Source: a virus (Duplodnaviria; Caudoviricetes). Taken from it: a stretch of DNA of 48,535 nucleotides. The stretch spans positions 1 to 48,535 of IMG/VR virus record IMGVR_UViG_3300020387_000002; one strand, written 5' to 3'. A program made the translations under genes and the position numbers. Under the pieces are notes generated by a model. That model was not told the origin of the DNA. It ran no database searches and saw nothing but the letters and a program-made list of their open reading frames with translations. Below are positions 726 through 48,535 of the stretch, one piece after another (the stretch's first letter is position 1; the number at the start of each line of letters is the position of its first letter).

Positions 726-1360
726 CTTTCTTTCTGGCCCCTAATTTGCAAGGGCGAAACAGGCCTCCCGGCTGTCAGCAAACCCCCTCCCCGGTAACTC
801 TACCCATTCTCCCGGGAGACTGAGCCCCCTTTCCACCCTCCGGAGGGTAGCCCCCGCCCCTCTACTACATACCCCCTCCATGCCAGCCCCGGAAGGGGAG
901 GGCCAACCCTACCCGCCGCCCCTATATCCCAGACCAGAAATGCCGGGCGATACATACCAGCATACATACTACCCACTACAGCAAGACACACTCTCCCCAC
1001 TACAGTAGACAGCTCCCCCCGGCCTCCCCCTCTCTCCCCCCTCGCACGGCACAATTCATGTCATCATGCTGAGGCCCTCTCCCTGCTGCTTCACAGATGT
1101 TCCACATGGAACAATCGCCCCCCCTGTTGCAATTGCATCCCCTCCTGCCATGCCACCCTGCTGCTCCCTGCCATGCCAGCCGCCCCCGGAGCCATGGCCA
1201 CCCGGGCAACTATCACTCCCCCGGCTGCTGGCCTTGCAAGTTGCAAGCCGTTGCAAGGGGCACCCCGGCTACCCCGACCCCCGGCAACGGGTCCCATGCC
1301 CCCGAGGTCTCCCCGTAAAGATACCCCCCTAAGCGGAGCGGCGTTACTATTGGGGAATAT

Positions 1361-1433
1361 GGGACCCCTATTTTGGGACTCCGGGGATGGAACGGGACTC
1401 CAGCGTGGGACTCTACATCTGGAACGGGACTCC
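1361..1433. repeat. Cluster of five GGGAC(T/C)C repeats, two as identical TGGAACGGGACTCC
   Basis: GGGACCCC 1361, GGGACTCC 1375, 1394 and 1426, GGGACTCT 1407. The 14-mer TGGAACGGGACTCC is at 1388-1401 and 1420-1433. Confidence 0.85.
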
Positions 1434-1559
1434 TGAAGTGGTTTGGGTCTGATGACCGCTGATGTGGGGAGCCGCTTCCGCCTCTCTATGGCAATGAGGC
1501 GTAGTGCTAATTTTCCCGAAAAAAATCGTGCCCATCCGGCTACGCCGATCTGGGCTAAA

Positions 1560-1916
1560 TTATTGCTGTGGTTGAGAGTGGGGAGGGGACTCGATTTTGA
1601 ACTCGTAGAGTTCGTCCATGAGTTTATCGACCCTTTTTTGCAACTCTGAGATATGAAGGTCCTGTCTTGTATCCGAGGGGAGTTCCCCACTTCCCCATTT
1701 TCCGGCAGGCCAAAGTTCCACGAAATTAGAATTTTTTGCAACGTCCCGGCCCATCATCTGGATTTGGAAGTCGTTGTGCTGGACCTGAGAGTTTAGTCCT
1801 GACGCCCACCAGACTATTGCGGCGGCTTGGAGTGCCAGTCCTACTAGGAGAGGGATAAATGCAAAGCCAGCCCCATCGCGGCTATCGCTTTTGTCCTCTT
1901 TTGCCATGAACGGCAT
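1560..1916 (-). CDS. Small membrane protein (one N-terminal TM helix plus coiled coil)
   Basis: Hydrophobic FAFIPLLVGLALQAAAIVWWAS followed by a heptad-like segment; last gene of a tightly packed leftward block. Confidence 0.7.
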   Translation of the reverse strand: MPFMAKEDKSDSRDGAGFAFIPLLVGLALQAAAIVWWASGLNSQVQHNDFQIQMMGRDVAKNSNFVELWPAGKWGSGELPSDTRQDLHISELQKRVDKLMDELYEFKIESPPHSQPQQ

Positions 1917-1924
1917 TGTTCACA

Positions 1925-3897: not shown

Positions 3898-3902
3898 ACG
3901 GT

Positions 3903-4205
3903 TTACAGTGCTTGGCGTTCTGATAAATCAAGGACATTGGTGGCATCATGCAGACGCTCAAGAGGCCAAGGCCTAAGGCCTCGCTCAAGGTCAGAAAGGT
4001 ATGTCGCAGAGATGTTCATCCACTTCGCCATAGAGCGCAGTGACAAGTCTGACTTCATCCTCCTCTTCCTTACAAGCGAGCCAATAGCCTCCCAATCAAA
4101 TACCCATTGTGAGGATACGTTTACTGGTTGGTATTGACCGAGCCATTTAGGGAGAGCGGCATAAGCCTCCTCGCGGCTACTAAAGGTCTGCGAGTTCTTC
4201 GGCAT
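3903..4205 (-). CDS. XRE/Cro-family HTH transcriptional regulator
   Basis: IGSLVRKRR...LSLRSMAKWMNISATYLSDLERGLRP is a classic XRE HTH signature. The start may be 4205 or 4214. Confidence 0.85.
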   Translation of the reverse strand: MPKNSQTFSSREEAYAALPKWLGQYQPVNVSSQWVFDWEAIGSLVRKRRMKSDLSLRSMAKWMNISATYLSDLERGLRPWPLERLHDATNVLDLSERQAL

Positions 4206-4383
4206 ATTGTCCAATTTCTCGCGCTAAATCTTTGAAGGACTCGGCGTTGTGACGATCAGGCTTCCCCTGTGACCTGTATTCGTCGTTTTCAACATTCATA
4301 GAGTTGAGCGTGGCCAAGCACTCAACGACTTTGGCGTGGGAATAGAGGGCCGCCTTTAACTCGGATAGGTTTTCTCCTTCCAT
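4180..4383 (-). CDS. Hypothetical protein
   Basis: 67-aa ORF tiling the leftward block. Confidence 0.55.
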   Translation of the reverse strand: MEGENLSELKAALYSHAKVVECLATLNSMNVENDEYRSQGKPDRHNAESFKDLAREIGQYAEELADL

Positions 4384-4676: not shown

Positions 4677-5318
4677 TTAACGGGAGTATTTCTCCTCCGC
4701 ATCCAGTGACCCTCTGACCTTCAAGTCCTTAGAGAGAATTTTCTTTCTAACCTCCGACTCTATTGGGGTCTCCTCGTCCTTGGGGCGCTCCTTCAAGGCC
4801 TTTTCCGCTTCCGTTAGGTCTCCTTCAATAAGTTGCTCGCTAGGGACCTCAATAGCCTCTCCATCCTCAGCCTTGGACCTATCGAGCATTCGGCCAACTG
4901 CCCTACGCAAAGCCGGGGACTTCTGCATTTTGTTTTCCAGAGTCTGCATTGTATCCACATTGTGAGTGACCACCTCGCTTCGGGACACAGGCATTCCCAC
5001 TTGATATTGCAAAAGCAGCTTCAGCGCGTCCAACCGGGTTTTGAAGTCAGGGGTCTCAAACGGCTTGCCCCCAATGGCCATGGTTTTGGTCGCAGACATG
5101 CATTCTGCAATTTTTGCAACTACCTGATCCGGTCCAAACTTAATTGCAAGTGACTCGATGATCTTGGGGGCTAGGTCGGCGGCCCTGATGGAGAGGCGTC
5201 CCTCTTCTGCCGCTTTTTTGATTTTGCTCTCAGCCTCCTGAACCACGGTCTCTTTTTCAACTGTTCCCTCCGGAGGGAGAGAGGGCAAAGGTAGGCTTTC
5301 AGGCTGCTTTTTAGGCAT
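4677..5318 (-). CDS. Putative terminase small subunit-like protein
   Basis: VVAKIAECMSA...PDFKTRLDALKLLLQY resembles the oligomerisation helices of TerS-type proteins. This is an inference and the gene is far from terL. Confidence 0.45.
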   Translation of the reverse strand: MPKKQPESLPLPSLPPEGTVEKETVVQEAESKIKKAAEEGRLSIRAADLAPKIIESLAIKFGPDQVVAKIAECMSATKTMAIGGKPFETPDFKTRLDALKLLLQYQVGMPVSRSEVVTHNVDTMQTLENKMQKSPALRRAVGRMLDRSKAEDGEAIEVPSEQLIEGDLTEAEKALKERPKDEETPIESEVRKKILSKDLKVRGSLDAEEKYSR

Positions 5319-5365
5319 TGCAAGGAAATAAATTGCATGGTGTAATGTTGCAAGCTCTTTTAGAC

Positions 5366-5986: not shown

Positions 5987-8900
5987 ATGGCTGATATAGA
6001 GGACCCTTTTGAGGATGCGCCTATCCAGAATCCTTACGGGGACTCTGATGGACTATCCCAACTTCGCGCTGGTGTAGCTAGGCACCAGAGGAGGCTTGAC
6101 GCTCTTAATAGAGAGCAGGAACAGAGGAAGGAGCAGAAAGAGAGGGAGCAACGGGCTAGGGATGCGGAAATTGAGAGAATCCAAAATGAAAGGATTGCTA
6201 GGCAGAACAAGATTACCAGAGGCAGGGCCTCGGATGAGGGTCTTGACGATTACCTGCTAGAGGACAAAGACGGAAGGTTAAGGATGTCCCTCACTGATGA
6301 TCAGGTTGCTGATCACAGAAAGACCCTTAGAGAGATAGAAAAAGATAAAGCCAAAAGGGAAGCGGCTAAATCTAAAATCAAAGGCCTATCGGACCAGATA
6401 GCGGCAATTAGGAAAGATCCGGACAGGGCCCCGCTAACCCCAGCCAAAAGGAGGGCGGCTGAAGAGGATCTGGAGAAGGATCTAAACTACCTTGAGGGCC
6501 TCAGACAACGGGCCGCAGACGGCGAAGAAGGAGCGGCTGAATTTCTAGCGCAAAAGCAGCAGTCTATTGCAGAACAAAGAGCGGCCTTAGATGCTGACGA
6601 CGAGTCTATCTCTTCAATCGAAGAAATAAACCAACGCATCAAAAGGCAGGAAAGAATTGGGGAAGGATTCCCCGAAGACCTTGCAAGAACCCGAGACGGA
6701 ATCCTTGGATTGCGAACATGGGACGCTCCAACCACAGAACAGGAAGGGCCCGAGGAGGTCAGCAAGTTTATTGACGCTTACAATCGGGAAGTAGAGCGCA
6801 ATAACGAGAAAATCAAATCAGTCCAAGAGGACGAGAAAAAGGCCGCAGACTCTTACCATCAAAAAATCGAAGAGCTGGAGACAGGCTTCCTAGACTGGGT
6901 GGGCACTGGGGTTACTCCAGATCAGATTAAAGACGGAAGAGTAGTTCTTAGGCAGCAGTGGGCGGAAATTACAAAGGACTACCTGAGAGAGAGGTATGAA
7001 TACGACAAAGGGATTAAGGCTTCTCAGCAAAGAGGAGAGTCCTTGGATCTGCTTAGGCCCATAATTGGAGATGCGATAGAAGACTATGACGGCTTTGGCC
7101 GTGCGCGAGCCAAGGAGGCCGCTGAGGCTGCCGCCAAGGCAAGGAAGCAAATTGTTGCTTCCATGAGGGAGCAGCAAAAAGAGTTTAACAGGATAGGGTT
7201 TAAGGGCAAAAGGGCAATGGGCCCTTCATACGGTAAAGAGGTTAATGATGCTTACGATGAGTGGGTCAAGACTTTCGAGAAAGGGATAAAGGCAATACCT
7301 GACGACATCGAGTATGGTGTCAAGGGGTCTTGGGGAATTTCAGGAGACGAAGGGGTTCCGGGGGATGACTATGTCACAGGCAAAAAGCTGACCAACACCC
7401 CTGAAAACAAAAAGGAGTATCTGGCTCAAAAACTGGCCGAAATTCAGAACAGGATAAACGAGGGGGTTCAACAAAGGTTTGAAAGATCCGGGGACCTTTA
7501 CGGGGATCTTGTGTCTGCAATTTTTCAGTCATCCGGAAACAGTCCGGCTCTACTAAAGGCACTCGGCAAGCATGGATATGATGTAACTCCAGAGTTCGCG
7601 GAAGACGTTGAATTTTTGATGCCTTTGTATGTAAGGCCGAGTTCTGCTGACAATATCGGCAAAGCTCCATTTTGGGTGCAGCCTATGAATGTTGCTGCGG
7701 CTGGGGCGGATTTTTTGGGGGGCGTACTTAAATGGGGCTCGGTGGGGTTAAAGGCGGCAAAGCCCGGAAAGCAATACGGGACACAGCCCGGTCACCAGAA
7801 TAGGATAAACAGACTCATTGATAATCTAAGAGAGGCTGGATACACGGGAGAAGAAATAGGTGAGGCTTTTGACAACATACAACTGACGTTCAAAAAGTGG
7901 CCAAAGAAAGTTGGAGAGGAGCCCTCAAGGTTCAGAAGTGATGGGAGCATCATGCTCCATCCAGAGCTAAACATAAACAACAAGAAGGCCTACGCAGAAG
8001 CAGTTAGATCCGCCGAGGCACCGGAGTTCATTAAGAACCATTATTTATCTGACGAGACATACCAGAGGTTGTTGACGACATATTTGAGCGGCGTAGATCA
8101 TGCGGCCCAAGCGGCCTATAGCATTACTCCAGAAATATTCGGAGGAACGCCCACCCCTGCGGAGTTCAAAAGGAAGTTTTCAAGACCAGCATTAGCCACA
8201 AGAAAAGCAATAGATGATCGCAAAGAAGAGCTGCGCGAGCTTTCGGCTACAATAAACGAAAAAGAGTATAGGGGAGGAGACGCCTCAGCTTTAAGAAAAA
8301 GCCGGGAGGATCTTGAAACCGAGATAGAGGGTCTAGAGGAGGTTCATGCAAAGGAGCTAAGGGAGATACCCAGCTACAATGAACAGATGGCTGAGTATGT
8401 TGCCACATACTCAGATAAAATAGATGGATTTGGGGCGACAATAGGGCGGCCTGCTCGGATGCTTATGATGGGAGGCGGTAAGGCTTGGCAAACCCTTACT
8501 GGAATCGGAGCAGTTCTTGCAATACCCGGAGCGAAAGACCTTACAATAAATGCTCACCATGCGCTGGCTGAGCAAAGGGAAGGGGCAGAATATTTGGGGA
8601 CAGCGTTTGATCATCTTGGCCCCCTGAAATGGCTTTCTAAAGGCTCCGATATACTTCTTGAGGAGGGCCCTTCACTGTTGTTCTCGCTAATCCCGGGCGT
8701 GGGGGCCTCTGCCACAGCGACATCAAAGGTCATGGTCAAAGGGATCGAGAGATCCGTCAGCAGGCAGGTTACAAGAGGGGTTCTTAGCAAGGCGGCTGCA
8801 AAGAAGCAAAAAGACAAATTCCTTCAGGACGCGGCCAAAAAATGGGGTCTCCGGGGGTCTGCCGCTGGAGCTGGATTCCAGTCTGCGGGACTAAGCTGGT

Positions 8901-11900
8901 CTCATTATTACGAGGAAGCCAAATCCAAGAGGGAGGCAGAACTTGGAAGGGCTCTCACGGCTGAAGAAGAAGACGACTTGGCATCAAGCCAAGCGGTGGC
9001 TGGACGAGCGATGGTTACAGGCGTTCTTACCGCGACAGTCGTCAGGGCTTTTGGGTCAACGGGTGTCGAAAAGGTTTTCGCAAGAGGAAAAGTAAACGAA
9101 TGGACAGTTAGAGATTTCTGGAGATCCATTGGGGCAGAGGGGACAAAAAGAAAAGAGAAGTTCATATCTTCGTTCAAGGAGGTTGTGAAGGCATCAGCCT
9201 TTGAGGGCGCTGAGGAATTTACTGATCAGTTTCTTTCTGCCTTGGCATTTGATGATGCAAGTTTCTCAGAAATCATGGGCACGGCAGCGTATGCTGGTGC
9301 TGCTGGCTTAGTATTGGGCGGCTTTATGGGGGCCACCATGTCTGCCGGAAGAACCGGGATGACAGTCGAGAACTTCGCTGACCCCAAAACTGCTCGCGCA
9401 GCACTTGGTGATGTTTTTGGCAAAACAGAATACACCCAAGAGGAAGTTGAGGCCGGGCTGGAACTGGTAAACTACAACCCCGGCAAGGGGTCTAATGATG
9501 GCGGGGTCGCAGCCAGAAATTTGCAAGTTGCAATTGAGGCCCATAAGAATCTCAACAATAGAGAGGAATCGGCTTTTGGCAGCAGGAACTATTACAACCG
9601 ACTGGGCAATGAGGAGCTGGTTGCTGAGGCGCAGGCGGAAATTGACAGCGTTAATCAGGTTCGCGGCCTCATTAAAATTGCAAGCGGCAAGGTTAATGAC
9701 GATAGCGAGCTAACTGCTGCCGAGTTCAGGGCGGTAAACCAAGCGGCTAACGAGCAAGGAAACCCTGCTATTAGGGAGGTAAACGGGCAGCTCGTAATCA
9801 CAAAGGACGGGATTAAGGCGGTCCAGAGAATGGACCCTGATGCGGGGGAGTTTTTAATAGCCCTAAATGAGGAAGCCAGACTTAAACAGATACGAGAAAC
9901 CCCTCTTCCAGAGGCAGAGGAAACGGTTAAGGCAGAGGCAAGGGCTGAGGAGAAACCGGAGCCGACAGAAAAGGCAGAAGCCAAACCGGAAGCCAAGCCA
10001 GCAGAAACAGAACCTGAGGCAGCCAAGCCAGACGTATCCAAGATAAAAGGAGCGGCTGTTGAGGGCGGCAGGCAGGTTATTCGCAACTCGAAAGGGGAGC
10101 ATTATTCCAAACGCGCAAGCGCCGAGATACGGCTGAAAAAGCTGATTAAGGACGGCAAGCTGCCTTCTGAGGGGTTTAGTGTTGTCGAGGAAGAGGCAGG
10201 GAAGTGGATTATTGCAGAGGATGTAAAGGGCGAGGAGGCCGCTCCCTCCGGAGGGAAGAAGAAGTGGAGGGTCACAATCAATGTTGGAAAAGGGAAGACT
10301 AGAACAGTTGAGGTAGAAGCGGAAACTAAGGCGGAAGCTGAGGACGCGGCGATAGGAGAAATAAAAGCCCCCGAAACAATATTCGCGGTTGAAGAGCTTG
10401 GCAGAGACGCCCCAACACTCCAGACCGAGCCCAAGAAAACCAAAAAGGCTCCCCCCGCCAAAACCCTAAAGGAGAGCAGAGATGTAGCTTCCGCCTTACA
10501 GGGATCAGGGCTAGTAGAAAGGGTTATTACTGAGACGGAGGAAACTCCTGTCCCCAAAGGACGAGATTACGTCATAACCAAAGATGGAGATGTAATTCTC
10601 AGCTCTAAGGTAGACGAAATGTCTGACCAAAAGCAGAGAAGGGTAGCCGCCAAAATACTGGTCGAGCTGGCCACTTCAAAAGTGCTTACCGATGAAGAGG
10701 CTAAGGCCCTCTTTGGCTTTTTGCCAAAGAAGGCCCAAGAGCTGATTGCCAAGAGAGCCGAGAAGGTCAAAGGCGAAAAAGTTTCTGATGCTGACGCGCT
10801 CCGCTATTTCGTGGAAAACCAGCTTTTGGACCCACTGATGGTGGCCACCATGCGGCAGGTAGTAAAGCAGACGGGGAGAAGGAAATCGGACAGAGCAGCA
10901 GTTAAAAACGGGCCCCTTGGCCTATTCCTTAAATACCTCAGAAGATTCCTAGATCGGATCAAAACTATCATTGCCGATAATCCAGCTCTGAAAAAGGAGT
11001 TGCAATTTTATGAGCGCATGGCGATGGCGCTTATTACTGAGCAAACAAGCGATAGAGTTCTTGCCGATCTCGGCGTAGCCATTCCAGAAAGCCGCATCAC
11101 AGACCGCAAAGATGTGGTTCTTCCCCCAAATATTAGAAGGCTACGGGGAGGCCAATACGAAGTAACTCTCCCCGGGGGGCGAACGCAAATTTTTGCAACT
11201 CGCGCAGAGGCAAGAGAGAAAAACGCGCACAAATACGAAGACACGTTCCACGAAGCAGCCAAAACTGCCGAGGCCATGCAGGTCGTAAAGGGCCGCCTGT
11301 CAATTGAGGAACTAAACTCGCAGTTACGTATCCTCAAGGACCTTGTCGCAACAGTGTCAACTAGGACGGGTTATTCAAAAGAGACTATCTACTCTTTTAC
11401 AAACGTGCTAAAAGTTGGAGGCGAATTTACTTCTCTTGCAGATGCACTTGCAGAGGCTTCTCGCACAGGCAAAGCGGATAAGCAACTGGCCCTGCAAGAC
11501 GCAATCAGGTCCTATTTAGGAAAGCTCTCAAATATAAATGAAGACCTTAGCTCCGTTCTGGAAAACGCGACCTTCACGGAACGCGCTCGTAGGGCTTTGG
11601 CAGCCAGCAGGATGGTTACCTCCGTTACCGCCGATGTGGCAGATGGAAACCCCGCAGTCATCCCAACACTCCGAAGAGCTAGAGACAGATTCTTGGCTTT
11701 GGTCGGAAAAGGGACTTCTGAAAAGGGGCTACAAAAATTGCAACAGCTTGTATCTCGCAAAGAGCAGATAACTGAGCAAATAGCGGCTATTGCAACTGAA
11801 GACCTTGCACTTGGGTGGGAAGGGGGAGTTGATCCCAAGGCGGCCAAGCTCAAAAAAGAGCTGGCTGACGTAGACAAAAAGATTGAAAAGGTAACCAGAG

Positions 11901-14900
11901 ATCAAGACGCGAAATACGCAAAGGCAGACGTTAAGTATAGGAAACACCTGAAAAGAAAAATAGGTGCCACCAAACACAGGGTAAAGGGCCTAGCAGAAGT
12001 AGACCCGGCAGCATCTAGAGTGTATGTGGGAATTTCTGATACGGGAGATGTGACGACATTGCTGCATGAGTTTATTCATGTATTGCAACATGTTAAAGAT
12101 CCCGACTCCGGAAAAAGCCTCTTAGACACAACCATAGGGGTAAAAAACGCCGAGGCGATGGCCAAATGGGCAGAGGAGGTTAATCCCGCAACGCCTCTTG
12201 AAACAATGGCAGAAGGTCTTGAGGCGTTTTTGCAAGAAGGCAAATCCCCAAACCCAGAATTGCAGGGAGCCTTTTCGGAGTTAGCTCCAGCAATTTACGC
12301 CATCTACAAAGACGTAACAAAGACGGGAGGATACAGGCTCACTGAAGAGGCTAGAGCGGCGTTTGGGGAATTATTTGCAGATAACGAGGTTGTCGGGAAC
12401 TCCTTGGGGGCAAATGCGGTAAGAACAGCCCAACTGCACAAGGCGCTTCTTAATGGAGCGATTGCCGTGGATGAAAAGGACTTGGTTCTTGCGTTGCCAA
12501 ACGGAAGGCCTCAGGCCGGATTCAAGAAGCGCAAGGCTGCTGAAAAGCTGGTAGAAAGCCTATACAGGCCTCTCTATGGAGATTCAGCAAAAGTCATCGA
12601 GCATGAAGGGAAGTTCTACGCAGGAATAGACCTTGGATCTGAGTGGTCCGCTCTCAAGGAAAAACTATCATCGTCACTCCTGTTCCAGAAAAAAGCAGTC
12701 GTATCAAAGCCTAACGCAGGAAACGACAGGTTCAGGGTCGGCAGCGCGTTACCAACGGGTAAAAACGCCCCCAAGAGAAGGGATGTTAAGTCCAATATCT
12801 CTGGGGCCATGGTCAGTGAGGAGCTTCTTGCGAAGCACATGAAGGCGTTTAACTACGACCATCTACCCAAGAGCATTCTTAACGAGAAGAACCCTTACAG
12901 AAAAAGAGAGCTGGCGATTGAATGGATGGTGGAAAACCTCTTGGCAATCCACGATGCCCTGCCAGCCCGAGTCCGGGCGGAAGCAACGCGCTGGTATGAT
13001 GGGGCTAGCAAACTTGCAAACACATTTGCAAGAAGATACGGATACACAAAAGTCCAGACGGCTGGCGTCATCGCCGTGCTTTCGCCTCAGAACAATTGGT
13101 TTAAGAATGTCGATCAGGCTGAGAAGCTAATCGACATTTACACGAACCACAAAAACGAGGTCATTAGCTACGAGACCCATGGGGAATCCATGGAGCGCAT
13201 AATTGCCGGGGCTCAGGCGTCCCAGACCAAAAAACGGTCCCGAAAAGACGGGGAAACTCCAAGCCAAAGGGAGGTAAGGCTTGCCTATAACAGGAGGCAG
13301 GACGAAATGGTCCGCGAGGAGAGAAGAATGCAATTGGAGGCTCTTGAGGGGCTGACAATCAGGAAACTTAAAAAACTAGGCAAAAGCCATCAGGCGTGGG
13401 CAATACGCCTTCTCGCTGATCATCACTGGGGCAATGAATATAATGTTCGCAACCCCGATGGCGACATTATTGATGTCCAAAGGAAGAAGCCGACAGCAAA
13501 GCAGCTCAAACGAGGGGAAGAGGGTGACCCCTCAACCCATAGCTGGGGAAGCACTAGGGAGATCCTTAATGCTGTTGCAATTCTAGACAACGGAAGCCTT
13601 GAGAGCTTAAACAAGGCTTTGGGGACCTACCACAAGGTCAGAAACTTTTACAACAACATCGTTGCCCCCAATAGCCCAATGGGTGATGTGACGATGGACA
13701 CACATGCCATAGCAGCAGCCCATCTCATGCCATACGGAGGCAAGGCCCTCCCTGTGAAGCAAAACTTTGGGGAGGCCATTGCAAATTCAAATGAAGGAGT
13801 AAATGGCACATACCATTTGTATGTTGACGCATACAGGGAAGCGGCTCGCAGAAGGGGCCTGATGCCCCGCCAGATGCAGTCGATTGTCTGGGAGGGCATC
13901 CGTGTGATTCACCCCACAACCGAGAAGACTGGGGAGCGCGGCAAAAAACGTCTAGCTCTTACCAAAAATTCGTGGAAGAATAACGGCAATGCCAGAGCAA
14001 GACAAATCATCATCAACAGATCCGGACCCCTCTATCCTGACTGGTTTACCGGAAGAAGAGATAGAGGCCCTAAAGGAGTATCAAAAGGACTGGGCAAGGA
14101 TAGGAAGAAACCTGTCACTGGAGCAGGTCGCACTACTGGAACTGGGGTCACCTCAAGACGAGGACGAAAATCTAGCCCCACCTTCCAGCTCGCTCCCGGC
14201 CAGAAGAACGTCGGCACCCGAATCTTTGAGAAAGGCCCGTCGGAAGAGGCTAAAGGAGAAGGTATCAAAGGACTTGGCCTACAAGGCCAAGAGGCCTACG
14301 CTTTCCTCGAAAGCCTTTATAGAACAGATGAAGCGTTCAATGAGATCCTAAGCGCAGCCGCAAAAAGGGGTCTTACTAGCCTTAAAAGCAACGCTGGCGC
14401 TTATGGGGCCGAGCAGATCCTTGTTCGGGAGTGGGCGGAAGAAAACAATTTCATCAACGATAATGTGTCGTGGTGGCAGGCGCACAAGGAGTTTTACAAG
14501 AACGACCCCAAAGCCCCACAAGGAGGATACGAGCATAAGATTCTGTTAAGGGGAGGTTATGTAGAGAAAATCTACGCCCCAACAGTCCGAGAGGACTCCA
14601 TACTGGAGTATCTAAACAGCCTCATATGGCATAACTACCTTTTCCCTGAGACCTCTTATGAGCTTCTTGGGTTTATGAACTTTGAGGACAGGATTGTCCC
14701 ACACGTTCGTCAAAAACTAATAGTAGAAGATGAAAAGTGGGCGAAGGAGCATGATGAGCTGTCCAAAATAAACCCCGACTACAATCGGTTGCAAGACGAC
14801 GATAGCGGGGATGTTAGGAGGCAGGGATTATTGGTAAATGAAATGATTGAAAGGGGCCTTATCCCAATTCAAGAATTTCTATTTTACGATCCAGCGGAGG

Positions 14901-17900
14901 ACATCGTGGTTGGGGATCTCCACAAAAGAAACTTCTTTATTGAGAACGGGGAAGTAAAACCTGTTGACGCTATAATTGTTCACTATGACCGAAGCCCCAT
15001 AAGCGAGAGGAACAGGGTTCGGGATGTGGACTTGCATGAGTTCCTTGAACGGCAAAACGCTCCGAGCGATGTGATTAACCACCCAATCGTCAAGTCTCGG
15101 GAAGAGCATCTTGCTGATCAGGAGGACCGCCGGAAAAGAGAGGATACGAGCGATATACATCGCTTCATGGCTGCCAATATGATCATTACGCCGGGCGGCC
15201 ACATAGAGCTACCCGGTGATCTAATCAACACAGCAGACCTGAAAAAAGCAGGCATTGCTGGAAAGCGAAAAGCAGAGCCGCCCTTAATGCAAAAAGACCC
15301 CAGAAGGGTTGTAGACGACGAATGGCTAGGACTGGCCGAAGAGGCTGGATACCCGGAATACAAAGACGGGGAGCGCAAACCCACCACTACGGAAACATCA
15401 CAGGCTAGACAAAAGCTATCATTGCTTACCAAGAAACTGGCCGACTTGTCTGGGCTTCACTTGTCTCCAATGTTCCATGGAACCAAAAAGAGGTTCACGG
15501 TTTTCAACATTAGCTCCGCTCCGATAGTGCTTCAAGATGCTGAAGGCTATACAGACGAGGCCACGCCCATAAGCGATTGGGGTAATGGGATATACACAAC
15601 AAATACAAGGGACGATGCCACACTGAATTACGCCAAGAAGGGGGCGGATTGGGATATAAAAGTGCAAGACAGGGCCAAAGCTATCCTGAAAAACCCCACT
15701 AAGGAGCAACAGAAGGCCATAGAGGCGCAAAGTTCGTTGCCCAAGGAGCTTGTAGCTATGATGCTTGCGGACAAAGAGGCCTCAGAAAGCATCGAGGGCT
15801 CCTTTGTTAAGGACCTGTATGTCAAATTGGAAAACCCGGCAGAGTTTGGCCCAGACTCCATGGGGAATCATGTCCACTTTGAGGAGTGGAACGGAGAAAG
15901 AAGCCATCCTGTATTAGATGCTCTGGAGGTAATTAAAGAGAACATACAGGCAGAGGAAGGAGCCACCGTAGTTACAGACATGGAGAACATGCAAAATTTG
16001 CAAGAGCTTCTCCTTGACGGCCCAAGGTATGAGCAGGTCGAGAAAGCACTGAAGGTCCTTCCGCCACTTAAAGTGATGCGGGTTGACAGAATGGGTGGTT
16101 TTGAAAGCCTCGACAGCAACAGCCCTGAAATTGCAAGAAGGGTCTTTGAGGTCCTTGGCCATGACGGAATAATTGACCGGAACATTCTAAAGAAGTTCCC
16201 AATGAAGGGCGTGGATGAAAGCACCATACACGTTATCGCTTTCCGTCCTACGCAGGTAAAGTCGTCTGACACGGTTACTTATCACCCTGAGACAGGAAGA
16301 ATAGTCCCGCCTTCTGAAAGGTTCGACATGCAACATCCGGACATCTTGCTACAACAAGACCCGGAGGTAATCCGGCTTGCAAAGCCCGATGCTTGGAAAA
16401 GGAACCGTGTCTCAGAGGCGATTCGGGAGATAGAGCAGGTCGAAGGGTGGGATAGAAACCCGCTTCACCCTGCACAGATTGTGACTGACACGGGTGTTTC
16501 AATTGAGGTGTTTATATCCCCGTCTGACAACCTGCATTGGGCAAGTTTGATCAGCTTTGGCCAGAGAAGAAAAGGCAACGCTACAGCAGTTATAGAGAAG
16601 CTAAAGGAGATAGCAGATAAGCATAATGTCCTTATTGAAGGTTTTGCAAAGCCCTTTGATGTTAGCAAAAATCGCACAGGAACTGGCACAGAGGAACAGC
16701 TCTCATTGCCACAACTGCTCAAGTTCTACGAGAGCAGAGGTTTCACGGTGCGGTCAAATGGAGATATTGTTTACCATAAGGACCCGGCAGTAGTAGCTAG
16801 TTTCACTGGCTGGGGCCGGAATGCGGACCCCCAGAATGCAGCCGAGGTCATTGTCGAGCTAAAGAACGCCAGCGAGGGGCTAGACCTAAGCTCGTTTGAG
16901 ACGGGTCGCTTTGGAGAGTTTTTTGAAGAAGAGCATCCTGCCATGGATTGGCAAATCGCTATTCCGGAGGAGCTATTGGTAGAGGACTACAGTGTCCCTC
17001 ATATATTGGCTTTGTCTGATTACTTCCAAGCATTGGAAGCAGCCTTTTATGAATACATTGAGGAGGACAGCGTTGACCCCAGTTTTGAGGACTATATCGA
17101 GGAAAGAATAGGACTCCTAAGGGACCTACTGGACTTCCTTGAGGCAACGCCTTCTATCCGGCCTCCAACTTTCCAGCTCGGCCCAGAAGCCACGCCGCGC
17201 GGGGCCAATGATGCTGACGCGGATAAGCCGTCAGACATGACACCCCTTGATCAGATCCCGATCCCGGGGATGGATAAAAGGAGGGGTCTCAGGCTGCAAT
17301 CTTCCAACATGTATGGGAGGACAGCCCTTAAAACCTTGGCTAAGGAGCTTTTCCAGAATGGTTTGGACGCCGTTATGAAAAAGAAGGCCGCGATGGACGC
17401 TTCTTTGCCTCAGCGGTTTAAGGAGCAGGTTGTGCTGCCAGAGCTAAAAGAGGCCGGAATAGACCCAGAAGGAGAGCTTGGCAAAAAGACAATACAGTTT
17501 CACCTAGACAATATATCCACAAGGGCCCTAGCAGACCTTCCTAAGAACTTAGTATATCGGCCAAGCATCTATTTCAGGGGAGGGGGGGCCAGCCCCAACC
17601 CAGCCGTGCCCATGCGAAGAGAGGACGGAGAATACTATGAAGGCAAGGTTGCGTCTTTTGCCGACAATGGAATAGGCATGTCCCCGGAGCTGGTTCTCAA
17701 CACCTTTCTTGTCCCCTATGTTTCAGGGAAGAAGGTCGGAGAAGGAGGGGGATTTGGAATTGCAAAACTGGTGTTCTTGATGGGTCCAAACAATGTCTGG
17801 ATTACTACCGTCACAGAAAACGAAGAAGGCCAAAAGATAAGAACCCGAGTGGAAATTGGCCCCGGGGCATATGAAAGGTATGCGCTTCAAGATCCCGACG

Positions 17901-28719: not shown

Positions 28720-30249
28720 ATGGCATTCCATACTTCCAATGTTACTGGTCAGGGAATCGGCAACGCCCTTTCCGCTGACCCCGCAAACGCATTTGGTAAC
28801 GCTGGGGCAGTCCGCGAACTTTGGCGCAAAGGAGTTGAGGTCTATGAACAGACCGCAGACTTCTTTGCTCCTTTCGAGGGCGGCAACGACAGCATTATCC
28901 AAACCGTTACCGACACGACCAAAGGTCGCGGTCAGAAAATTACGTTCACCACCATGGCTGGTCTCTACAATGAGCCCAAGCACGGGGATGAGCTTTTTGA
29001 TGACGGTGATGCTTTCGAGTCGATCAAGATCAATTCCGCAACCCTGTCCGTGGACTTCATGCGCCACGGCGTTCGTTACACCGAGCGAGCTGAAGAGTTC
29101 ATGGGAATGCGCGGCGAAATCGCCGTAGGCATCCCCCGCGAGCTTGGCAAGTGGATGGGCCGCAACAAGAGTGAGAAGCTGTTTATGAGCTTCTTGCACC
29201 ACGGCGCAGGCGCAAACCAAATTATTGCAAACAGCAAGGCCAACGCGGACGCTCTGTTTACTGCTGACACCCTTGATTGGGACGGCATCGTCTCCGCTCA
29301 GACGCAGCTCTCCCGCCTTGGCGGAAGCCCTGCTAAATTGGGCCGGGATCAGAACGGTAACGCCATTCATCGCTACTGCTCCGTTGCAACCACTGACGCT
29401 CTGTTCTCTCTTGAGCAGGACGCTGACTACAAGGATGCACACGAAGAGGGTGGGCCAAACGCCTACTCCAACCAGTTGTTTACGGGTGGCTACTCCGATG
29501 TCCGGGGTAATATCATCAAGAAATACAATCCCATCGACCATGACGGATACGGTGCGATTGCTTCTCCGCTGAACCCCAAGGCAGAGCTTGGATGCTCGAC
29601 CACCAACGGGTTTACCACCAACAGCACCACTGGTGTTGCAAACCTCAGAATCGCTGGCGGTGGATCTGCAACTGCTGGGGCTCTTACGGCTCCCGCTTAC
29701 TTCAAATACTTCCCGCTCTTCGCGTTCAAGTTCCTTGCAACGGACACCCTGTCTCTTGCGGCCAGCTTGTATGGAAGTGGGGCGTTCTTTGTAGCGGTTG
29801 TAAACCACCCCAATGCGGCCACAGACCCGAACAAGATTGGCTTCTACTCATGTAACGCCAATGACGGGAACCTGTTGACCGTGAACGACAAGCACCAGTC
29901 GGGAGACGCCAATAACCACCTTGGCTCCCTTCCTGCCTTTGATGCGGCGGTTCACACCAACACCCACGATGCTGGAACAGCCAGCGTCTACCTTGTGAAC
30001 CAGCACGGTGTGCCTTACGGCCACACTCTGTTCATGGGTAAGCAGGCTGCTCGTCGCGCATACGGCAAGTATCGCAACCAGCGTTCCGAAGACTCCCATG
30101 AGGGCGGCTTCGTGAAGGACATCTTCGTGACCTCTGTCTTCGGACAGGAGCCAGTGCAGGATGCTGCTGGGCGCAGGCCGGGATACCTTATCCTGACACA
30201 CGCACTGCAATACGCTGGAGTTCCGTTCCCGACAGTCACCACTGCTTAA
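28720..30249 (+). CDS. Major capsid protein (N4 gp56/DUF4043-like)
   Basis: KGRGQKITF...G...GDE, MRHGV, LGKWMGR..SEKLF and C-terminal HTLFMGKQAA; codon usage looks like a highly expressed gene. Confidence 0.85.
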   Translation: MAFHTSNVTGQGIGNALSADPANAFGNAGAVRELWRKGVEVYEQTADFFAPFEGGNDSIIQTVTDTTKGRGQKITFTTMAGLYNEPKHGDELFDDGDAFESIKINSATLSVDFMRHGVRYTERAEEFMGMRGEIAVGIPRELGKWMGRNKSEKLFMSFLHHGAGANQIIANSKANADALFTADTLDWDGIVSAQTQLSRLGGSPAKLGRDQNGNAIHRYCSVATTDALFSLEQDADYKDAHEEGGPNAYSNQLFTGGYSDVRGNIIKKYNPIDHDGYGAIASPLNPKAELGCSTTNGFTTNSTTGVANLRIAGGGSATAGALTAPAYFKYFPLFAFKFLATDTLSLAASLYGSGAFFVAVVNHPNAATDPNKIGFYSCNANDGNLLTVNDKHQSGDANNHLGSLPAFDAAVHTNTHDAGTASVYLVNQHGVPYGHTLFMGKQAARRAYGKYRNQRSEDSHEGGFVKDIFVTSVFGQEPVQDAAGRRPGYLILTHALQYAGVPFPTVTTA

Positions 30250-30291: not shown

Positions 30292-30331
30292 GGGGCCCTG
30301 AGTTGCAATTCTTGCAACCGGGGCCCCTTTT
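30292..30331 (+). terminator. Intrinsic terminator after the capsid gene, built on two TTGCAA copies
   Basis: GGGGCCCTGAGTTGCAA-TTC-TTGCAACCGGGGCCCC-TTTT; two smaller hairpins precede it at 30248-30286. Confidence 0.75.
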
Positions 30332-30339
30332 GCTATACT
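30312..30339 (+). promoter_or_regulatory. Sigma70-type promoter overlapping the terminator (leaderless)
   Basis: TTGCAA (30312) - 16 nt - TATACT (30334) with extended -10 TGn; ATG at 30346. Confidence 0.65.
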
Positions 30340-32793: not shown

Positions 32794-32796
32794 GCC

Positions 32797-42428: not shown

Positions 42429-42502
42429 ATACGTCGATTTGATCGACACACCTCAGAAACGTGTCGATATCTTCATAGGAAATCGACTTGCTGTCCACAG
42501 CC

Positions 42503-42879: not shown

Positions 42880-42908
42880 TTGCAACTTGCAAAATAATTA
42901 GTTAAAAT
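42880..42908 (+). promoter_or_regulatory. Sigma70-type promoter (leaderless)
   Basis: TTGCAA (42880) - 17 nt - TAAAAT (42903); ATG at 42916 with no Shine-Dalgarno. Confidence 0.7.
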
Positions 42909-44135: not shown

Positions 44136-44555
44136 CTATTTAGAATGTTGCAATTCTGCAAGCTCTACTTGGAAGAGTTCGATGATCGTTTCTTCTTCCC
44201 GAAAATGCCTGACACGTTCTGCAACTGCGAGGACTTCAAGATGTTCGGGGGAATCGTCTTCAAACATTCCGATTTGTCGAAGTCCGTCCAGATAGTGCTT
44301 TGAGGCGGCTCCCAATCCATCGTAGTCGCGGGATCGGACGGTTCTGACGGTAACGATTGCAACAGTGCGGCATACTGGCTTTGCCTTGCTTTGAACTCTT
44401 TCCCTACGCTTCGGTTTGTCTTTAGCAGGTTTAGGGTCGGCCCCACCTGCGGTATCACCACATGCGCTACCTTTTTTGCGCCAGACTCCATCAGGGCCTT
44501 TCTCAAAACCTTTGCTGTGTAAGAGGTCATACGCCTCCTCCTTGCTTCCTTTCAT
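44136..44555 (-). CDS. RusA-like Holliday junction resolvase
   Basis: RDYDGLGAASKHYLDGLRQIGMFEDDS; ATG at 44555. Confidence 0.7.
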   Translation of the reverse strand: MKGSKEEAYDLLHSKGFEKGPDGVWRKKGSACGDTAGGADPKPAKDKPKRRERVQSKAKPVCRTVAIVTVRTVRSRDYDGLGAASKHYLDGLRQIGMFEDDSPEHLEVLAVAERVRHFREEETIIELFQVELAELQHSK

Positions 44556-44955
44556 TTTGGGGGACCCTTCTTCTTTCCCTGTTGTAAAGAGGCACAATGG
44601 ACCTGTGCCCGTGCTTTGTTTTTTGCAAATATCCCTTTTTCTCAAGGGCGGCCACAACATTGCTGGCAGAGTTTGTCCAGTGCCACCCCATGTGGTTCAT
44701 AATCTCCCTGAGGGTGGGGGATTCTCCTTTGCTTATGTAGTTGTGAACAATAAAGCACAGCGCCTCGTCTTGTGTTGGGGTCAAATCCGGAAGTGTAATA
44801 TTAACCTCGTTGTCTGGAAGGTTCTCCACCACATATTGGGCAAGCAGCTTGTCACAACTTGCAATCGTTTTTTCCGCCGATGACCTTTGCTCCAACACAA
44901 AACGAACTGCCGGGTTGTTCATGTATGAATCTGGTATATTCGGGCAAGTCTTCAT
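44527..44955 (-). CDS. LexA-type winged-HTH DNA-binding protein lacking a peptidase domain
   Basis: LTPTQDEALCFI...GESPTLREIMNHMG....SASNVVAALEKKGYL...RSI; ATGA overlap with the dnaB stop gives a start at 44955. Confidence 0.8.
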   Translation of the reverse strand: MKTCPNIPDSYMNNPAVRFVLEQRSSAEKTIASCDKLLAQYVVENLPDNEVNITLPDLTPTQDEALCFIVHNYISKGESPTLREIMNHMGWHWTNSASNVVAALEKKGYLQKTKHGHRSIVPLYNRERRRVPQNERKQGGGV

Positions 44956-46277
44956 GTTGTTACAAGTGGGGACTCTGAGAAAGACGTAGTGTCGTTTGCA
45001 AACGAAAGGCTCACTTCTCCGCAAGCCCCGCTTCGGTTCTTGGCAACAATAGCACAGGCCTCGCTTGCGTTTTTGCTCATATCCCTATGAAGCAGTATTA
45101 CGCAATCAGCATCCTGCTCCAAGTCTCCAGATTCCTTTAGGCTCTCAAGATTTGGTTTGGGTATTTCCGTTGCTCCGCTGGAGCTATTGTATGCGTTCCC
45201 GGTTCTTCGGAGCTGGGCAAGAGCAACTACCGGGACGCCTAGCTCCTTGGAAAGGGCTTTAAGGGCTCCGCTAACCTCCCCAACCTCTTCGCGTTTAGAC
45301 ATTTTGCTCTTAGGCTCTACCCCTTTGATTAGTTGGATGTAGTCAACAATGATGCAGCCAACCCCGTCTTTTGACACCGCTTTTCGGGCTCGGGACCTTA
45401 ATAGATCAATATTTATCCTGTCTGTGTCGTCAATCCATACAGGCCAATCCTTCATTGTGGCAATCCCTTGTCTCAGGTCATTTAGCTCAGACTTCAAAAG
45501 GGCACCGCTTAGGGATTTGGTGGGGTTTACGCCTGACAAAGTTGCAAGAAGACGTTGTTTAAGCTGCAAGTCTGACATCTCACAGGAAAAGAAAATGGAC
45601 CCGACTCCTTGTCTCGCCAAGTTGACCACCATGTCCCCGGCTAGGGCGGTTTTGCCAACGCTTGGCCGGGCCCCCAGCAGGTATAGCTTGGACGCCTGAA
45701 GCCCGTCTATAAGGCCCTCCAGCTTGTGGAAGCCAAATGGAACGCCTTTGATTTGGTTGGGGTTTTGAGCCCTCCACGCGATATCCTCAACCAGCTCGCT
45801 TAGCTCACCGATGTGGCTAACTCCTCCGGAAAGCGACCTTCCTTGGAGAATGGCCCGAGATCGGCTTGTAGCGGCCTCTAGGGCCTCTATAGGTTCAAGG
45901 GCGGGTGAGCCCCCCTCCGTGGCATCTGAGAAGGCCTGTGAGGCCGCTGTGGCCACCTCCCTTCTGGCGGCGACCTCCCTTAGAGCCACGACTAACTTTC
46001 GAGAGCTTACTGGCGGGGTTATTGGGGCCAGCTTGCCAAACAGGTCCCTTTCTCGATCCGAACAGCCGTGGACCCGCAGGGCCTCGTCCGTCAAAGGCTC
46101 CCCTTGAGACGCTAGATCATACAGGGCCTCAGCAAGGCCTTTTCTTTCAGCCGTTAAGGAGTCTATGACATCGTGATCTTCAGCAAGTATTTTGGGGTTG
46201 TTGCAAACGTGGCTAATAAACCCCTCCTCGCTTTGCAGGTCATAAAGAGTTTCTCTGGTTTTTTGCGCTTTGCTCAT
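44952..46277 (-). CDS. dnaB: Replicative DNA helicase, DnaB family
   Basis: GARPSVGKT, FFSCEM, IIVDYIQL, VVALAQLRR, LKESGDLEQDAD, AKNRSG. Confidence 0.95.
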   Translation of the reverse strand: MSKAQKTRETLYDLQSEEGFISHVCNNPKILAEDHDVIDSLTAERKGLAEALYDLASQGEPLTDEALRVHGCSDRERDLFGKLAPITPPVSSRKLVVALREVAARREVATAASQAFSDATEGGSPALEPIEALEAATSRSRAILQGRSLSGGVSHIGELSELVEDIAWRAQNPNQIKGVPFGFHKLEGLIDGLQASKLYLLGARPSVGKTALAGDMVVNLARQGVGSIFFSCEMSDLQLKQRLLATLSGVNPTKSLSGALLKSELNDLRQGIATMKDWPVWIDDTDRINIDLLRSRARKAVSKDGVGCIIVDYIQLIKGVEPKSKMSKREEVGEVSGALKALSKELGVPVVALAQLRRTGNAYNSSSGATEIPKPNLESLKESGDLEQDADCVILLHRDMSKNASEACAIVAKNRSGACGEVSLSFANDTTSFSESPLVTT

Positions 46278-47335
46278 GGTGCTTCTTTTTGTTGCTTGCT
46301 GATTCTGTCCCGGGCCGACTGGGTGAGCCCGTCTCCTGTCGGAACCTTGCCCAGTGGGTCCGGGGGCAGCTTCTCCCTCCTAACCAGCTCCGACTCGATG
46401 TTGTAAATCCACGTTGCAACATCTTTGGCTGGGATGTTGTTCTCTTTGTAGAAGCTCTGAACCATCCCTGACGTATATGCCGCATGTCGTATTCTGTAAT
46501 AAGCAATCAGGCGCTCTTGCAGGGCGGCAACGCCTTCGTTTCTTATTCTCTCTACGCCGAAATGCTCCTGTAGCTCTTTCATACAGGAGACAAACTTCTC
46601 CCTAGTCCAAGAATCTGGACTTTCCGAAACCGCAACAAGCATTGCGTCCCGGGCGTTGTTGAATTGCAACTTCTTACCCGCGTCTTCGGGCTGGGCAAAA
46701 AGAGCGGCCTCAGACAAATATGTGGGAGGTATGGGCAACTGCCTGATGGGGGCGGGAATCTTTTGAACAACTATGGGCCACTTGGCCAATGTCTTCATGC
46801 TCCACTTGACCCCGTTCTCTCTTTTGAGAAGCCCAAGCTCCTCAATCGCCTCCTCAATGGACAGGTCCCTTGTGTCCCGGGCCATGTAGTCCAAGATGAT
46901 CTCCCCTATCCACAAAAGGATTTCCTTGTTCTGCCTGTGCTGGGCCTCATAAAGCCAAGCTAGGTTGTCGCAAACATTTTTGAGATCCGATTTTGCAATG
47001 TTGGCCCCAAGCTCTAGCTGACCAGTGCTTTCGTCTACAGCAGCTTTCGTTGATGCCTTAGAAACGTAGTCGTTCATTTGGCAAAAGAACTGTTGCAACC
47101 ACTCGGGTCGATTACTTGACAGGGTGGATTTCAGCCGGGCAACAGAGTGCGTTGAGCGGAGGTCTATAACGCTATCATCCGAATCGGCATCCCGGTTCAT
47201 GTAAAACTTCCCCTTCTCAAGGTCGAGGGCCAGAGGTTGGTCGTCTGGCGCGTTAGAGAGTTTGAAATATGTGTCCATTGTTTTCTTCGGGCTCCCCGGT
47301 GGCAGCAGAGGGATTGCCGCCACCGGGGTTACCAT
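46274..47335 (-). CDS. Hypothetical protein in the replication block
   Basis: 353-aa helical ORF coupled to dnaB by ATGA. Confidence 0.7.
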   Translation of the reverse strand: MVTPVAAIPLLPPGSPKKTMDTYFKLSNAPDDQPLALDLEKGKFYMNRDADSDDSVIDLRSTHSVARLKSTLSSNRPEWLQQFFCQMNDYVSKASTKAAVDESTGQLELGANIAKSDLKNVCDNLAWLYEAQHRQNKEILLWIGEIILDYMARDTRDLSIEEAIEELGLLKRENGVKWSMKTLAKWPIVVQKIPAPIRQLPIPPTYLSEAALFAQPEDAGKKLQFNNARDAMLVAVSESPDSWTREKFVSCMKELQEHFGVERIRNEGVAALQERLIAYYRIRHAAYTSGMVQSFYKENNIPAKDVATWIYNIESELVRREKLPPDPLGKVPTGDGLTQSARDRISKQQKEAP

Positions 47336-47348
47336 TGTCTGTTGCTAT

Positions 47349-48329
47349 TTATCCGTTGCGTCCCACCTGCTCGTTTACTTGCTCCCTCCAATACAGGGGG
47401 GCCCCAACGAAGAATTTCTCCACACAGGCTCCCATCTTCTCCTTGTGGTCATCATACACCGCATTCACAGCATCATCGTCTGCGTTGGCGCTAGACCTCA
47501 GCTCATCGTAAGCCGTGTCCCATAGGCCCCTTTCGTCCATAAGGCGATCAAGGTCCGCAAGAACCTCTTGGGCTTTGGGGCTCAGGCTTTCATCCTCTTC
47601 CAGCTTGGCGTGACCTTTCATGCAACGCTGGATAAGGGTTGCGTCATCCATTTCTGGAGACTCCTTTTTCTCCTCAGGAGGGGCCTTTGGCTTCTCGGCC
47701 TCCCTTATGGTGTAAAGTTCCAGTTTTGCATGCAGAAACAGATTTGTTGCAATAACCCTGTGGTTTTCCGGGGTCCGTAGCTCGGGTCTTTCTTTCAGCA
47801 ACTCATCTGCCCTGTCTAAGCAGATAGCAAACCCTCTGGCCGCAAGATCAATGCTGTCATCAAACGAGGTGCGGGTGCGCCCGGGGTTGGCCGGGGGATG
47901 GCTGGCTGCCTTAATTGCAACAGGCTTATCCTCCTCGCTGTTCGTCGCCCTCACCCCGGGATCTCCCCCCGGAGGGAGGACGCGCATGGTCGCCTCAGGA
48001 TAGACCTTTACCACTATAGTGGGGTATTGGCTCCCCTCTTTCTGCCACCTGTTCACCACAAGGCCGCGCTTCTCTCCCTTGTCGTTTGTCCCTGCGGTAA
48101 GCACAAGATCCTGACCCTCGATTGAGTCCAGAATGTGCATGGGGGCCTTCATCAGGGTCACCATCAGCTTGGTGCCGTCTCCGTCACTCAGCAAAATGGA
48201 CTGCCTGTGCTGCTGCCACTTGAGGTCGTTGTCGGTTTGATCGACGGGTGGATACTGCTTTTCGACGGTCCCCCTAAGGGAGTCAATGGCAGTCTTGTCT
48301 GTGCTTTCTTTGATGTCTGCTAGGTTCAT
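47349..48329 (-). CDS. Putative OB-fold ssDNA-binding protein
   Basis: ATG at 48329; LRGTVEK...QSILLSDGDGTKLMVTL resembles RPA/SSB OB-fold strands. Confidence 0.55.
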   Translation of the reverse strand: MNLADIKESTDKTAIDSLRGTVEKQYPPVDQTDNDLKWQQHRQSILLSDGDGTKLMVTLMKAPMHILDSIEGQDLVLTAGTNDKGEKRGLVVNRWQKEGSQYPTIVVKVYPEATMRVLPPGGDPGVRATNSEEDKPVAIKAASHPPANPGRTRTSFDDSIDLAARGFAICLDRADELLKERPELRTPENHRVIATNLFLHAKLELYTIREAEKPKAPPEEKKESPEMDDATLIQRCMKGHAKLEEDESLSPKAQEVLADLDRLMDERGLWDTAYDELRSSANADDDAVNAVYDDHKEKMGACVEKFFVGAPLYWREQVNEQVGRNG

Positions 48330-48535
48330 GCTTCTGGCTTGTTGGTGGTTTCTGTGAGTGGGTCGTAGTTTTTCATCCAAGTCCAAACCTTGTGGAGGCA
48401 GGTAAACGCTTCCCACGCCTTGTCCACATCATCCTTGTGATGGATAACAAGCTCGGAGGACCACACCCCGCCTTCCCCCGCGTTGGGAGAGGTGTTGAGT
48501 AACAGGTTTGCAACGGGGACCTTGGAGGTGTTCCA
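48326..48535 (-). CDS. Partial CDS (3' end), probable PD-(D/E)XK exonuclease
   Basis: Open frame from the window edge: ...VANLLLNT...DDVDKAWEAFTCLHKVWTWMKNYDP...*, with ATGA overlap with the next gene. Family inferred from the C-terminal helix only. Confidence 0.45.
   Translation of the reverse strand, partial: WNTSKVPVANLLLNTSPNAGEGGVWSSELVIHHKDDVDKAWEAFTCLHKVWTWMKNYDPLTETTNKPEA

Follow-up and report, generated by a model that had tools for sequence, protein, structure and literature searches.

What keeps one six-base palindrome so common in a phage genome, and what reads it? The question is raised by positions 1 to 48,535 of the IMG/VR virus record IMGVR_UViG_3300020387_000002 (Duplodnaviria; Caudoviricetes), hereafter the window, in which a preliminary description made from the letters alone had counted about 124 copies of TTGCAA and proposed a selected genome-wide mark. 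Exact counting returned 124 copies in the 48,535 bp, the first at 746 and the last at 48508-48513, equivalent to 2.6 per kb or around one per 400 bases. All of the tight clusters named earlier were recovered, and the open reading frames agree with the claimed presence in three codon phases (phase 0 at 20231, phase 1 at 13014 and phase 2 at 38702). The window is a fragment of a podovirus-like phage genome of ~65 kb. It lacks ~15 kb, judging from G001, a close relative whose complete circular genome measures 64.9 kb. Our analyses establish TTGCAA as a real, selected and phage-private word.

746..48513, no strand: TTGCAA palindromes, 124 exact copies, in genes of both strands and in spacers

Enrichment and conservation of TTGCAA

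TTGCAA is the most frequent hexamer of the window (the runner-up occurs 60 times), and Markov models predict 11.2 copies from base composition and 19.2, 26.8 and 43.3 copies at orders 1, 2 and 3, respectively. As a codon control we used 500 synonymous-codon shuffles of the 41 genes, in which proteins and codon usage were preserved; these genes carry 110 copies, compared with 20.5 ± 4.1 (maximum 36) in the shuffles. The roughly tenfold enrichment first claimed holds against base composition only, and amounts to 5.4-fold under codon control. The excess survives when the shuffles are split by frame and is found in all three codon phases (37, 63 and 10 copies versus 6.7, 11.1 and 2.8), and an artefact of frame or codon pairs was rejected on the basis of these shuffles. 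Around half of the places that the proteins permit are occupied (37 of 72, 63 of 149 and 10 of 12 in the three phases), and the dipeptide Leu-Gln occurs 72 times versus 46 for Gln-Leu. An order-4 (pentamer) model nearly absorbs the excess (248 observed versus ~213, both strands), but this control is circular because 124 of the 153 TTGCA and 124 of the 165 TGCAA pentamers sit within TTGCAA, so that pentamer composition is mostly built from the hexamer itself.

The nine one-mismatch words of TTGCAA are at background level in the window and in most sets from its clade, and its flanks show only a weak bias, for which reason a longer consensus or an extended palindrome was rejected. Large-scale spacing is near random (Kolmogorov-Smirnov p 0.63; coefficient-of-variation test p 0.045-0.78 in six genomes), and pairs 6-14 bp apart are ~5-fold over-represented (64 versus ~12 in 14 clade sequences), with no helical phase. 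Palindromes are otherwise avoided: of the 64 palindromic hexamers, 36 do not occur in the window, which also has no CCWGG and 4 copies of GTAC. Among the 1,088 enzymes listed, TTGCAA is one of 8 palindromic hexamers for which there is no exact-site enzyme, although TGCA cutters do cover it; the lack of a listed restriction enzyme with precisely this site may have allowed it to spread. Read mapping revealed no variant within TTGCAA among the 40 of 398 variants listed, which are too few for use. One copy forms the centre of a terminator-like hairpin 3' of the terminase gene (window 42500-42535).

Existing copies are also conserved. Retention was scored at sites whose spanned amino acids are identical, with the expectation taken from local synonymous change. 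Across six independent close pairs of sequences, 142 of 150 sites were retained compared with 121.7 expected (8 losses versus 28.3, z 5.0), that is, loss is 3.5 times rarer than local synonymous change predicts. At greater distance 29 of 39 sites were kept versus 12.7, and in retention excess TTGCAA ranks first both among 900 and among 290 hexamers, against a null that is slightly lenient (mean z over all words 0.4-0.5). A mutational or repair bias that generates TTGCAA with no function would be in keeping with the near-random spacing, and the excess of close pairs could stem from small duplications. However, such a bias leaves unexplained the reduced loss, the undrained one-mismatch precursors and the promoter copies (see below), which keep their position down to 63-67% capsid identity, and we regard it as highly improbable. 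Purifying selection fits better than a mutational source because loss is reduced and precursors are not drained, and site conservation points to selection. The selected genome-wide mark proposed at the outset is thus supported by the codon shuffles, the low site loss and the top rank among hexamers for retention.

Enrichment in TTGCAA is a trait of the clade, for which we used the capsid gene as a marker.

28720..30249, plus strand: major capsid protein, clade marker

Of the 35 loci first collected, many of them near-copies of one another, 34 carry 1.2-2.9 TTGCAA per kb, the exception being L018 (46% capsid identity) with 1 copy in 8 kb. When sequences were grouped, 11 of 13 sets lay >3 standard deviations above their shuffles, which bears out the enrichment in related phages, and 16 of 17 loci around the gene for a 353-aa protein (see below) have densities of 1.2 per kb or higher. 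No enrichment was seen in seven stretches that surround distant capsid homologues (21-45% identity, host flanks included), with 5 copies in 60 kb, 18 in 63, 11 in 40, 6 in 100, 3 in 80, 0 in 18 and 0 in 5 kb, and these stretches retain GTAC and CCWGG. An effect of recent acquisition was rejected, as homologue-free regions are not poorer in sites. Cultured relatives were not found: a set of 50,697 phage records contained nothing that matched the capsid and gave distant DnaB and terminase matches only, and a capsid scan of genome contigs returned no match.

Two lineages within the clade deviate. In L010 and L027, pooled as one phage from names and GC, TAGCAA/TTGCTA occurs 24 times versus 9 expected and TTGCAA 11 times versus 5. 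The lowest density, 0.87/kb, is that of G002 (which L390 overlaps), where the excess is found in structural genes only (17 versus 5.8) and not in the giant gene described below (4 versus 3.1) or in early genes (8 versus 7.7), and where TAGCTA occurs 37 times versus 17. This suggests a drift of the word to TAG half-sites in G002/L390 and L010/L027. G002 also has no CCGG, almost no GGCC and abundant AGCGGC/AGCCGC.

In a search for other viruses with dispersed TTGCAA, 5 of 80 triple-match loci were flagged, one of which is G001 and two of which are tandem-repeat regions or local arrays; none of 47 four-copy loci in unrelated viruses passed the threshold for dispersed enrichment. Unrelated viruses bear local arrays of 4-14 TTGCAA with spacers of 0-9 nt, lying within or after initiator- or primase-like genes or ahead of head/terminase genes (labels mostly by eye), and TTGCAA therefore recurs as an array element.

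Loci with local arrays: L090, L325, L329, L332, L333, L339, L341, L343
Loci with local arrays, continued: L347, L348, L357, L359, L361, L362, L363, L366

The phage group is marine and likely infects Verrucomicrobia of the Akkermansiaceae, judging from labels and matches of its genes. A capsid homologue is labelled Verrucomicrobiales, the DnaB of a 67%-identical cluster is labelled Akkermansiaceae, and the capsid profile matches 7 of 401 genomes, down to 1e-158, in the family of Luteolibacter sp. AS25, which we take to be the Akkermansiaceae.

44952..46277, minus strand: DnaB-like helicase; two NCBI assemblies label the copy of a relative Akkermansiaceae

Could the phage simply copy a chromosome signature of its host, akin to Chi, uptake sequences or the highly iterated palindromes (HIPs) of cyanobacteria? 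The actual host genome may lie outside our sample, and a few genomes of the phylum do carry 28-37 close pairs versus 0-3 in controls. However, the 401 genomes of the likely host family show no TTGCAA excess (highest 0.55/kb versus 2.6 in the window), close pairs reach at most ~15 per Mb in 301 genomes of the phylum versus ~230 per Mb in the window, and prophage-like relatives within those genomes are without the word. A host-genome signature of the HIP1 or uptake type, both cited as known iterated motifs in the preliminary description, was thus not found in the 401 family and 301 phylum genomes, and we consider copying of the host barely credible. The phylum genomes with 28-37 close pairs (reversed control 0-3) are G719, G793, G799, G816, G891 and G920, in which the pairs are perhaps a local regulator site or repeat. 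A distant relative that encodes a giant protein of 4,345 aa is integrated next to a tRNA gene and host genes on contig C172 of genome G054 (L306, L307, L321, L322); part of the phage family is therefore temperate in the likely host family. G054 has single TTGCAA copies 5' of the capsid gene and 3' of the gene for the small terminase subunit (terS), within chance.

Copies of TTGCAA in likely promoters

The placement of some copies in likely promoters was not part of the preliminary description, whose reading is otherwise supported in part. The sites concerned, and the terS gene that adjoins one of them, are as follows.

4677..5318, minus strand: putative terminase small subunit (terS), 46-100% conserved in the clade
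5318..5353, no strand: divergent promoter region of the putative terS and giant-protein operons; TTGCAA-N17-TGTAAT, TTGCAT and a second TTGCAA
27327..27368, plus strand: likely scaffold/capsid operon promoter; TTGCAA-N8-TTGCAA-N16-CAAAAT
30303..30339, plus strand: likely promoter 3' of the capsid gene; TTGCAA-N3-TTGCAA-N16-TATACT, with TGn extension
42880..42908, plus strand: promoter-like by sequence, TTGCAA-C-TTGCAA and a TAAAAT that follows the first copy at 17 nt
1234..1256, no strand: three clustered TTGCAA copies within the long non-coding stretch that separates the terS-led operon from the early AAA/VWA genes

At the likely scaffold promoter, all 9 clade sequences shown have at least one TTGCAA, and 6 of them have the N8 pair, compared with 0 of the 6 outgroups shown, of which G054 and G260 have TTGACA in the slot. 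At the post-capsid site, 9 of 10 clade sequences have TTGCAA 16-18 nt 5' of a TAnnnT box, 4 of them in doubled form, and it occupies the -35 slot in 0 of 8 outgroups; given this promoter, the start of the next gene would be a later ATG near 30346. The divergent region is alike in G004 over 36 bases but for one letter, and holds 3 copies in G002 and 2 in G003; in the window its first TTGCAA overlaps the terS start codon. A TTGCAA cluster is found in the long non-coding stretch in the window, G001, G002, G003 and G004 (31330/31339/31349 in G004), a possible packaging or origin region. The conserved, likely late promoters thus carry TTGCAA at the -35 position, often in doubled form.

These positions would also suit host sigma-70, were TTGCAA to serve it as a -35 box, with the copies scattered elsewhere acting as weak two-way docking sites by which polymerase pulls in or transcribes the genome. 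In line with this, TTGCAA fills a slot held by TTGACA in the two outgroups just named, and a -10-like box follows 11 of 49 non-coding sites versus a background of 11.5% (p 0.02, with a pattern chosen after the sites had been seen). However, coding sites have no such partner (28 of 408, or 6.9%, versus 8.3% background), TTGCAA-N16-18-TANNNT falls below its reversed control in 4 of 5 host genomes, and near-matches are not enriched, although sigma factors tolerate mismatches in their sites. We therefore judge docking by sigma-70 very unlikely, and a genome-wide promoter role was rejected, there being no -10 partner at spacers of 12-23.

Candidate readers of TTGCAA

The reading we prefer, with somewhat less than even confidence, is that TTGCAA is the site of a dimeric helix-turn-helix (HTH) protein of the phage, which would gather phage DNA and act at doubled sites. 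The most likely such protein is one of 353 aa with a predicted ParB/KorB fold.

46274..47335, minus strand: 353-aa protein, lead candidate reader; upstream of DnaB, with a predicted ParB/KorB-like HTH

Its AF2 model (pLDDT 83.8) has a putative HTH domain at residues ~110-255, followed by a helical hairpin. Over residues 110-257 the model aligns with Spo0J (VIA Z 6.8, rmsd 2.9, 104 residues), ParB on parS (Z 6.2, rmsd 7.7, 134 residues) and KorB (Z 5.6, rmsd 3.3, 110 residues); atlas neighbours are of the DUF1016/ParB HTH type (0.91), which we treat as leads only. We found 31 homologues, all 48-100% identical, whereas neither the outgroup stretches nor 401 genomes of the order yielded any, and on these sequence searches the gene is clade-restricted. 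No Pfam match to the N-terminal ParB/Srx CTPase domain was found in 30 members, residues 20-110 being barely covered by the fold search, and no ParA partner was detected. In the presumed recognition helix, V184 is found in both weak or shifted lineages, which lie on separate branches, and A or C in 12 strong loci (Fisher p 0.011); V184 also occurs in homologues P0313, P0322, P0328, P0330 and P0333.

The 353-aa protein would be made alongside the replication genes and load on the ~170 sites per genome, a density roughly tenfold that in the host. Once loaded, it might coat and gather replicating phage DNA in preference to that of the host, switch late promoters at doubled sites and designate the non-coding end region for use in packaging or replication. 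A more specific version, in our view rather unlikely, is that protein and palindrome are a co-evolving private address: the word would have passed from an operator at the -35 position of late promoters to a genome-wide label, and A184V would retune TTG to TAG half-sites. If true, the phage would distinguish its own DNA from that of its host without chemical modification, and a HIP-like word would have a named reader.

Several points weigh against the preferred reading. Sharp 6-bp specificity with silent near-matches is more typical of an enzyme than of a transcription factor, and ParB/KorB sites are longer, the operator OB of plasmid RK2 having 16 bp according to the accessible text of PMC11790492, compared with a 6-bp word found ~170 times here. 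Foldseek (E<=0.001), Pfam and PDB sequence searches with the protein were empty and its fold scores are moderate (Z < 8). L390, with 2 sites over 8.1 kb, retains the gene (50% identity), which is therefore not sufficient on its own. A184V was picked post hoc, with the pattern seen at 3 of ~350 positions and n=2, and three further HTH proteins are conserved in the clade. The pooled retention signal comes mostly from two pairs, window/G001 (52 of 54 sites kept versus 40.8) and G005/L012 (24 of 25 versus 18.6), the four closer pairs having low power, and the L051/L052 pair gives z -2.2 with the global and +0.5 with the local background. Lastly, spacing tests do not support a regular lattice of sites, and the host is inferred.

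Alternatively, the reader may be another phage protein that acts at DNA entry or packaging, namely the giant polyvalent protein through a sigma4-like HTH or some unnamed domain, the small terminase, or a MarR-like, LexA-like or XRE protein.

5987..23101, plus strand: polyvalent virion protein, 5,704 aa; DUF7178, Kinase-PolyVal, weak ART-PolyVal and HATPase
44527..45024, minus strand: LexA-type winged-helix protein, weaker candidate; Pfam LexA_DNA_bind 2.6e-11
3903..4214, minus strand: XRE-type HTH protein, weaker candidate; Pfam HTH_31 3.3e-8, present in G001-G004

The 5,704-aa gene qualifies as polyvalent by its Kinase-PolyVal (6e-13), DUF7178 and weak ART-PolyVal matches and by the portal gene directly after it. 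A sigma4-like HTH near residues ~4865-4905 is present in all clade members. However, it is also present in four outgroups without the word, its recognition helix varies, and in 6 of 6 genomes the giant gene has a lower TTGCAA density than the remaining sequence, a difference that is significant in 3; the sigma4-like HTH was rejected as reader since outgroups have it too. DUF7178 was likewise rejected: there was no PDB match or paper, and it is absent from G002 yet is also a family of other phages. Residues ~3800-4000 of the giant protein form a GHKL/HATPase-like stretch that is otherwise found only in G001 and G004.

For the putative terS, so labelled from a motif and its position (there was no library match), the overlap of TTGCAA with its start and promoter is in favour, while a homologue in outgroup G054 (48% over 75 aa) speaks against it. 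The MarR-type candidate is a 119-aa protein beside the SNF2 gene with a winged-helix fold and a conserved recognition helix. Its gene is present in every clade contig that reaches the locus but is also retained in the weak G002. As to the LexA-like and XRE proteins named in the preliminary description, both are weaker candidates than the 353-aa protein, and the LexA-like protein has 30-42% identity across the clade and a variable recognition helix. Even with the proposal that polyvalent proteins enter the cell with the DNA (accessible text of PMC5512222), a reader of this kind seems to us rather doubtful.

The exact-match sharpness of the word would also suit a methyltransferase or other modifying enzyme, probably an orphan of the host, whose mark the phage uses for protection or timing, as with HIPs. 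HIPs and alternate HIPs accompany cognate methyltransferases, as far as the available text of PMC4390886 goes, and the giant protein has long unannotated stretches in which such an enzyme might reside. However, no methylase family in Pfam or PHROG matched the open reading frames of the window or of the complete G001, which gives no support to the modifying-enzyme site first proposed; the match of one PHROG 'DNA methyltransferase' family was confined to the helicase portion of the SNF2 gene. The sole methylase-bearing relative, G002 (N6/N4), has the weakest signal, sampled hosts have no excess, and a literature search on TTGCAA with SMRT and methyltransferase gave nothing relevant. We consider a modifying enzyme unlikely.

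Genome context and known systems

Apart from the genes already described, the window carries genes for an SU10-type portal, terminase and endolysin, while the part of G001 beyond it adds primase, the SNF2 helicase, an AAA+/VWA pair and small unknowns. The AAA+ ATPase and VWA pair (G001 16493-19989, L036) opens the early region and is kept in G002-G004. A repeated GC-rich element lies directly 5' of early genes (G004 32560-33080 and window 1-100), a possible early promoter motif. Within the structural module, window 25631-27465 (minus strand) holds two variable reverse-oriented genes with no family match. Overlapping frames at 44136-44660 and 44165-44530 (minus strand) are both open in all 8 aligned relatives, with low divergence by codon position (0.15/0.24/0.28). 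One of them bears a putative RusA-like motif (there was no Pfam match); the other, the 121-aa frame at 44165-44530, had no atlas match and probably represents a shadow frame.

As a rule, phages purge palindromes. The present phage lacks 36 of the 64 but amplifies a single one under selection. In cyanobacteria, the reader of highly iterated palindromes has been an open question for decades. Here the field is narrow, with a ~65-kb genome in which no methyltransferase was found, four small HTH candidates, natural variants with a weakened or shifted word and conserved promoter copies, and naming the reader could reveal if sequence by itself lets phages mark their own DNA. A literature search, in which subscription journals were mostly missing and which did not extend to supplements, returned no printed phage case of TTGCAA or an iterated palindrome.

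In other phages, origin iterons and operator arrays are local, whereas TTGCAA is spread through every module. The nucleoid-like protein p6 of phi29 reads DNA shape and not an exact palindrome, and the GATC clusters of P1 pac are sites of host Dam, a word common in the host; the likeness of both lies in a genome-wide signal that is used more densely at promoters or ends and ties replication to late transcription and packaging. With KorB-OB of RK2 and ParB-parS, the preferred reading shares a ParB-fold HTH of a mobile element and operators both near and far from promoters (accessible text of PMC11790492).

The closest likeness in form is to HIP1 (GCGATCGC) and the alternate HIPs of cyanobacteria, which in the available text of PMC5861425 and PMC4390886 are short perfect palindromes found in all frames, with no known reader; there, too, the word is conserved within and between genes beyond codon needs, and related words substitute for it in some lineages. 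TTGCAA differs in being viral and an AT-rich 6-mer, HIP1 being chromosomal, GC-rich and cyanobacterial, and its 5.4-fold enrichment is below the 15-300-fold reported for HIP1 in the portions of these sources available. Near-matches of TTGCAA are not enriched and no periodicity was detected, whereas HIP1 is periodic at 10-90 kb, a scale for which the phage genome, with its near-random spacing, is too short. HIPs have a cognate methyltransferase (PMC4390886, as available), whereas none was found in the window or G001, and we do not class TTGCAA as a HIP because the methylase and chromosome features fail. Finally, TTGCAA is built into likely promoters, whereas the accessible text of PMC5861425 gives HIP1 no promoter link.

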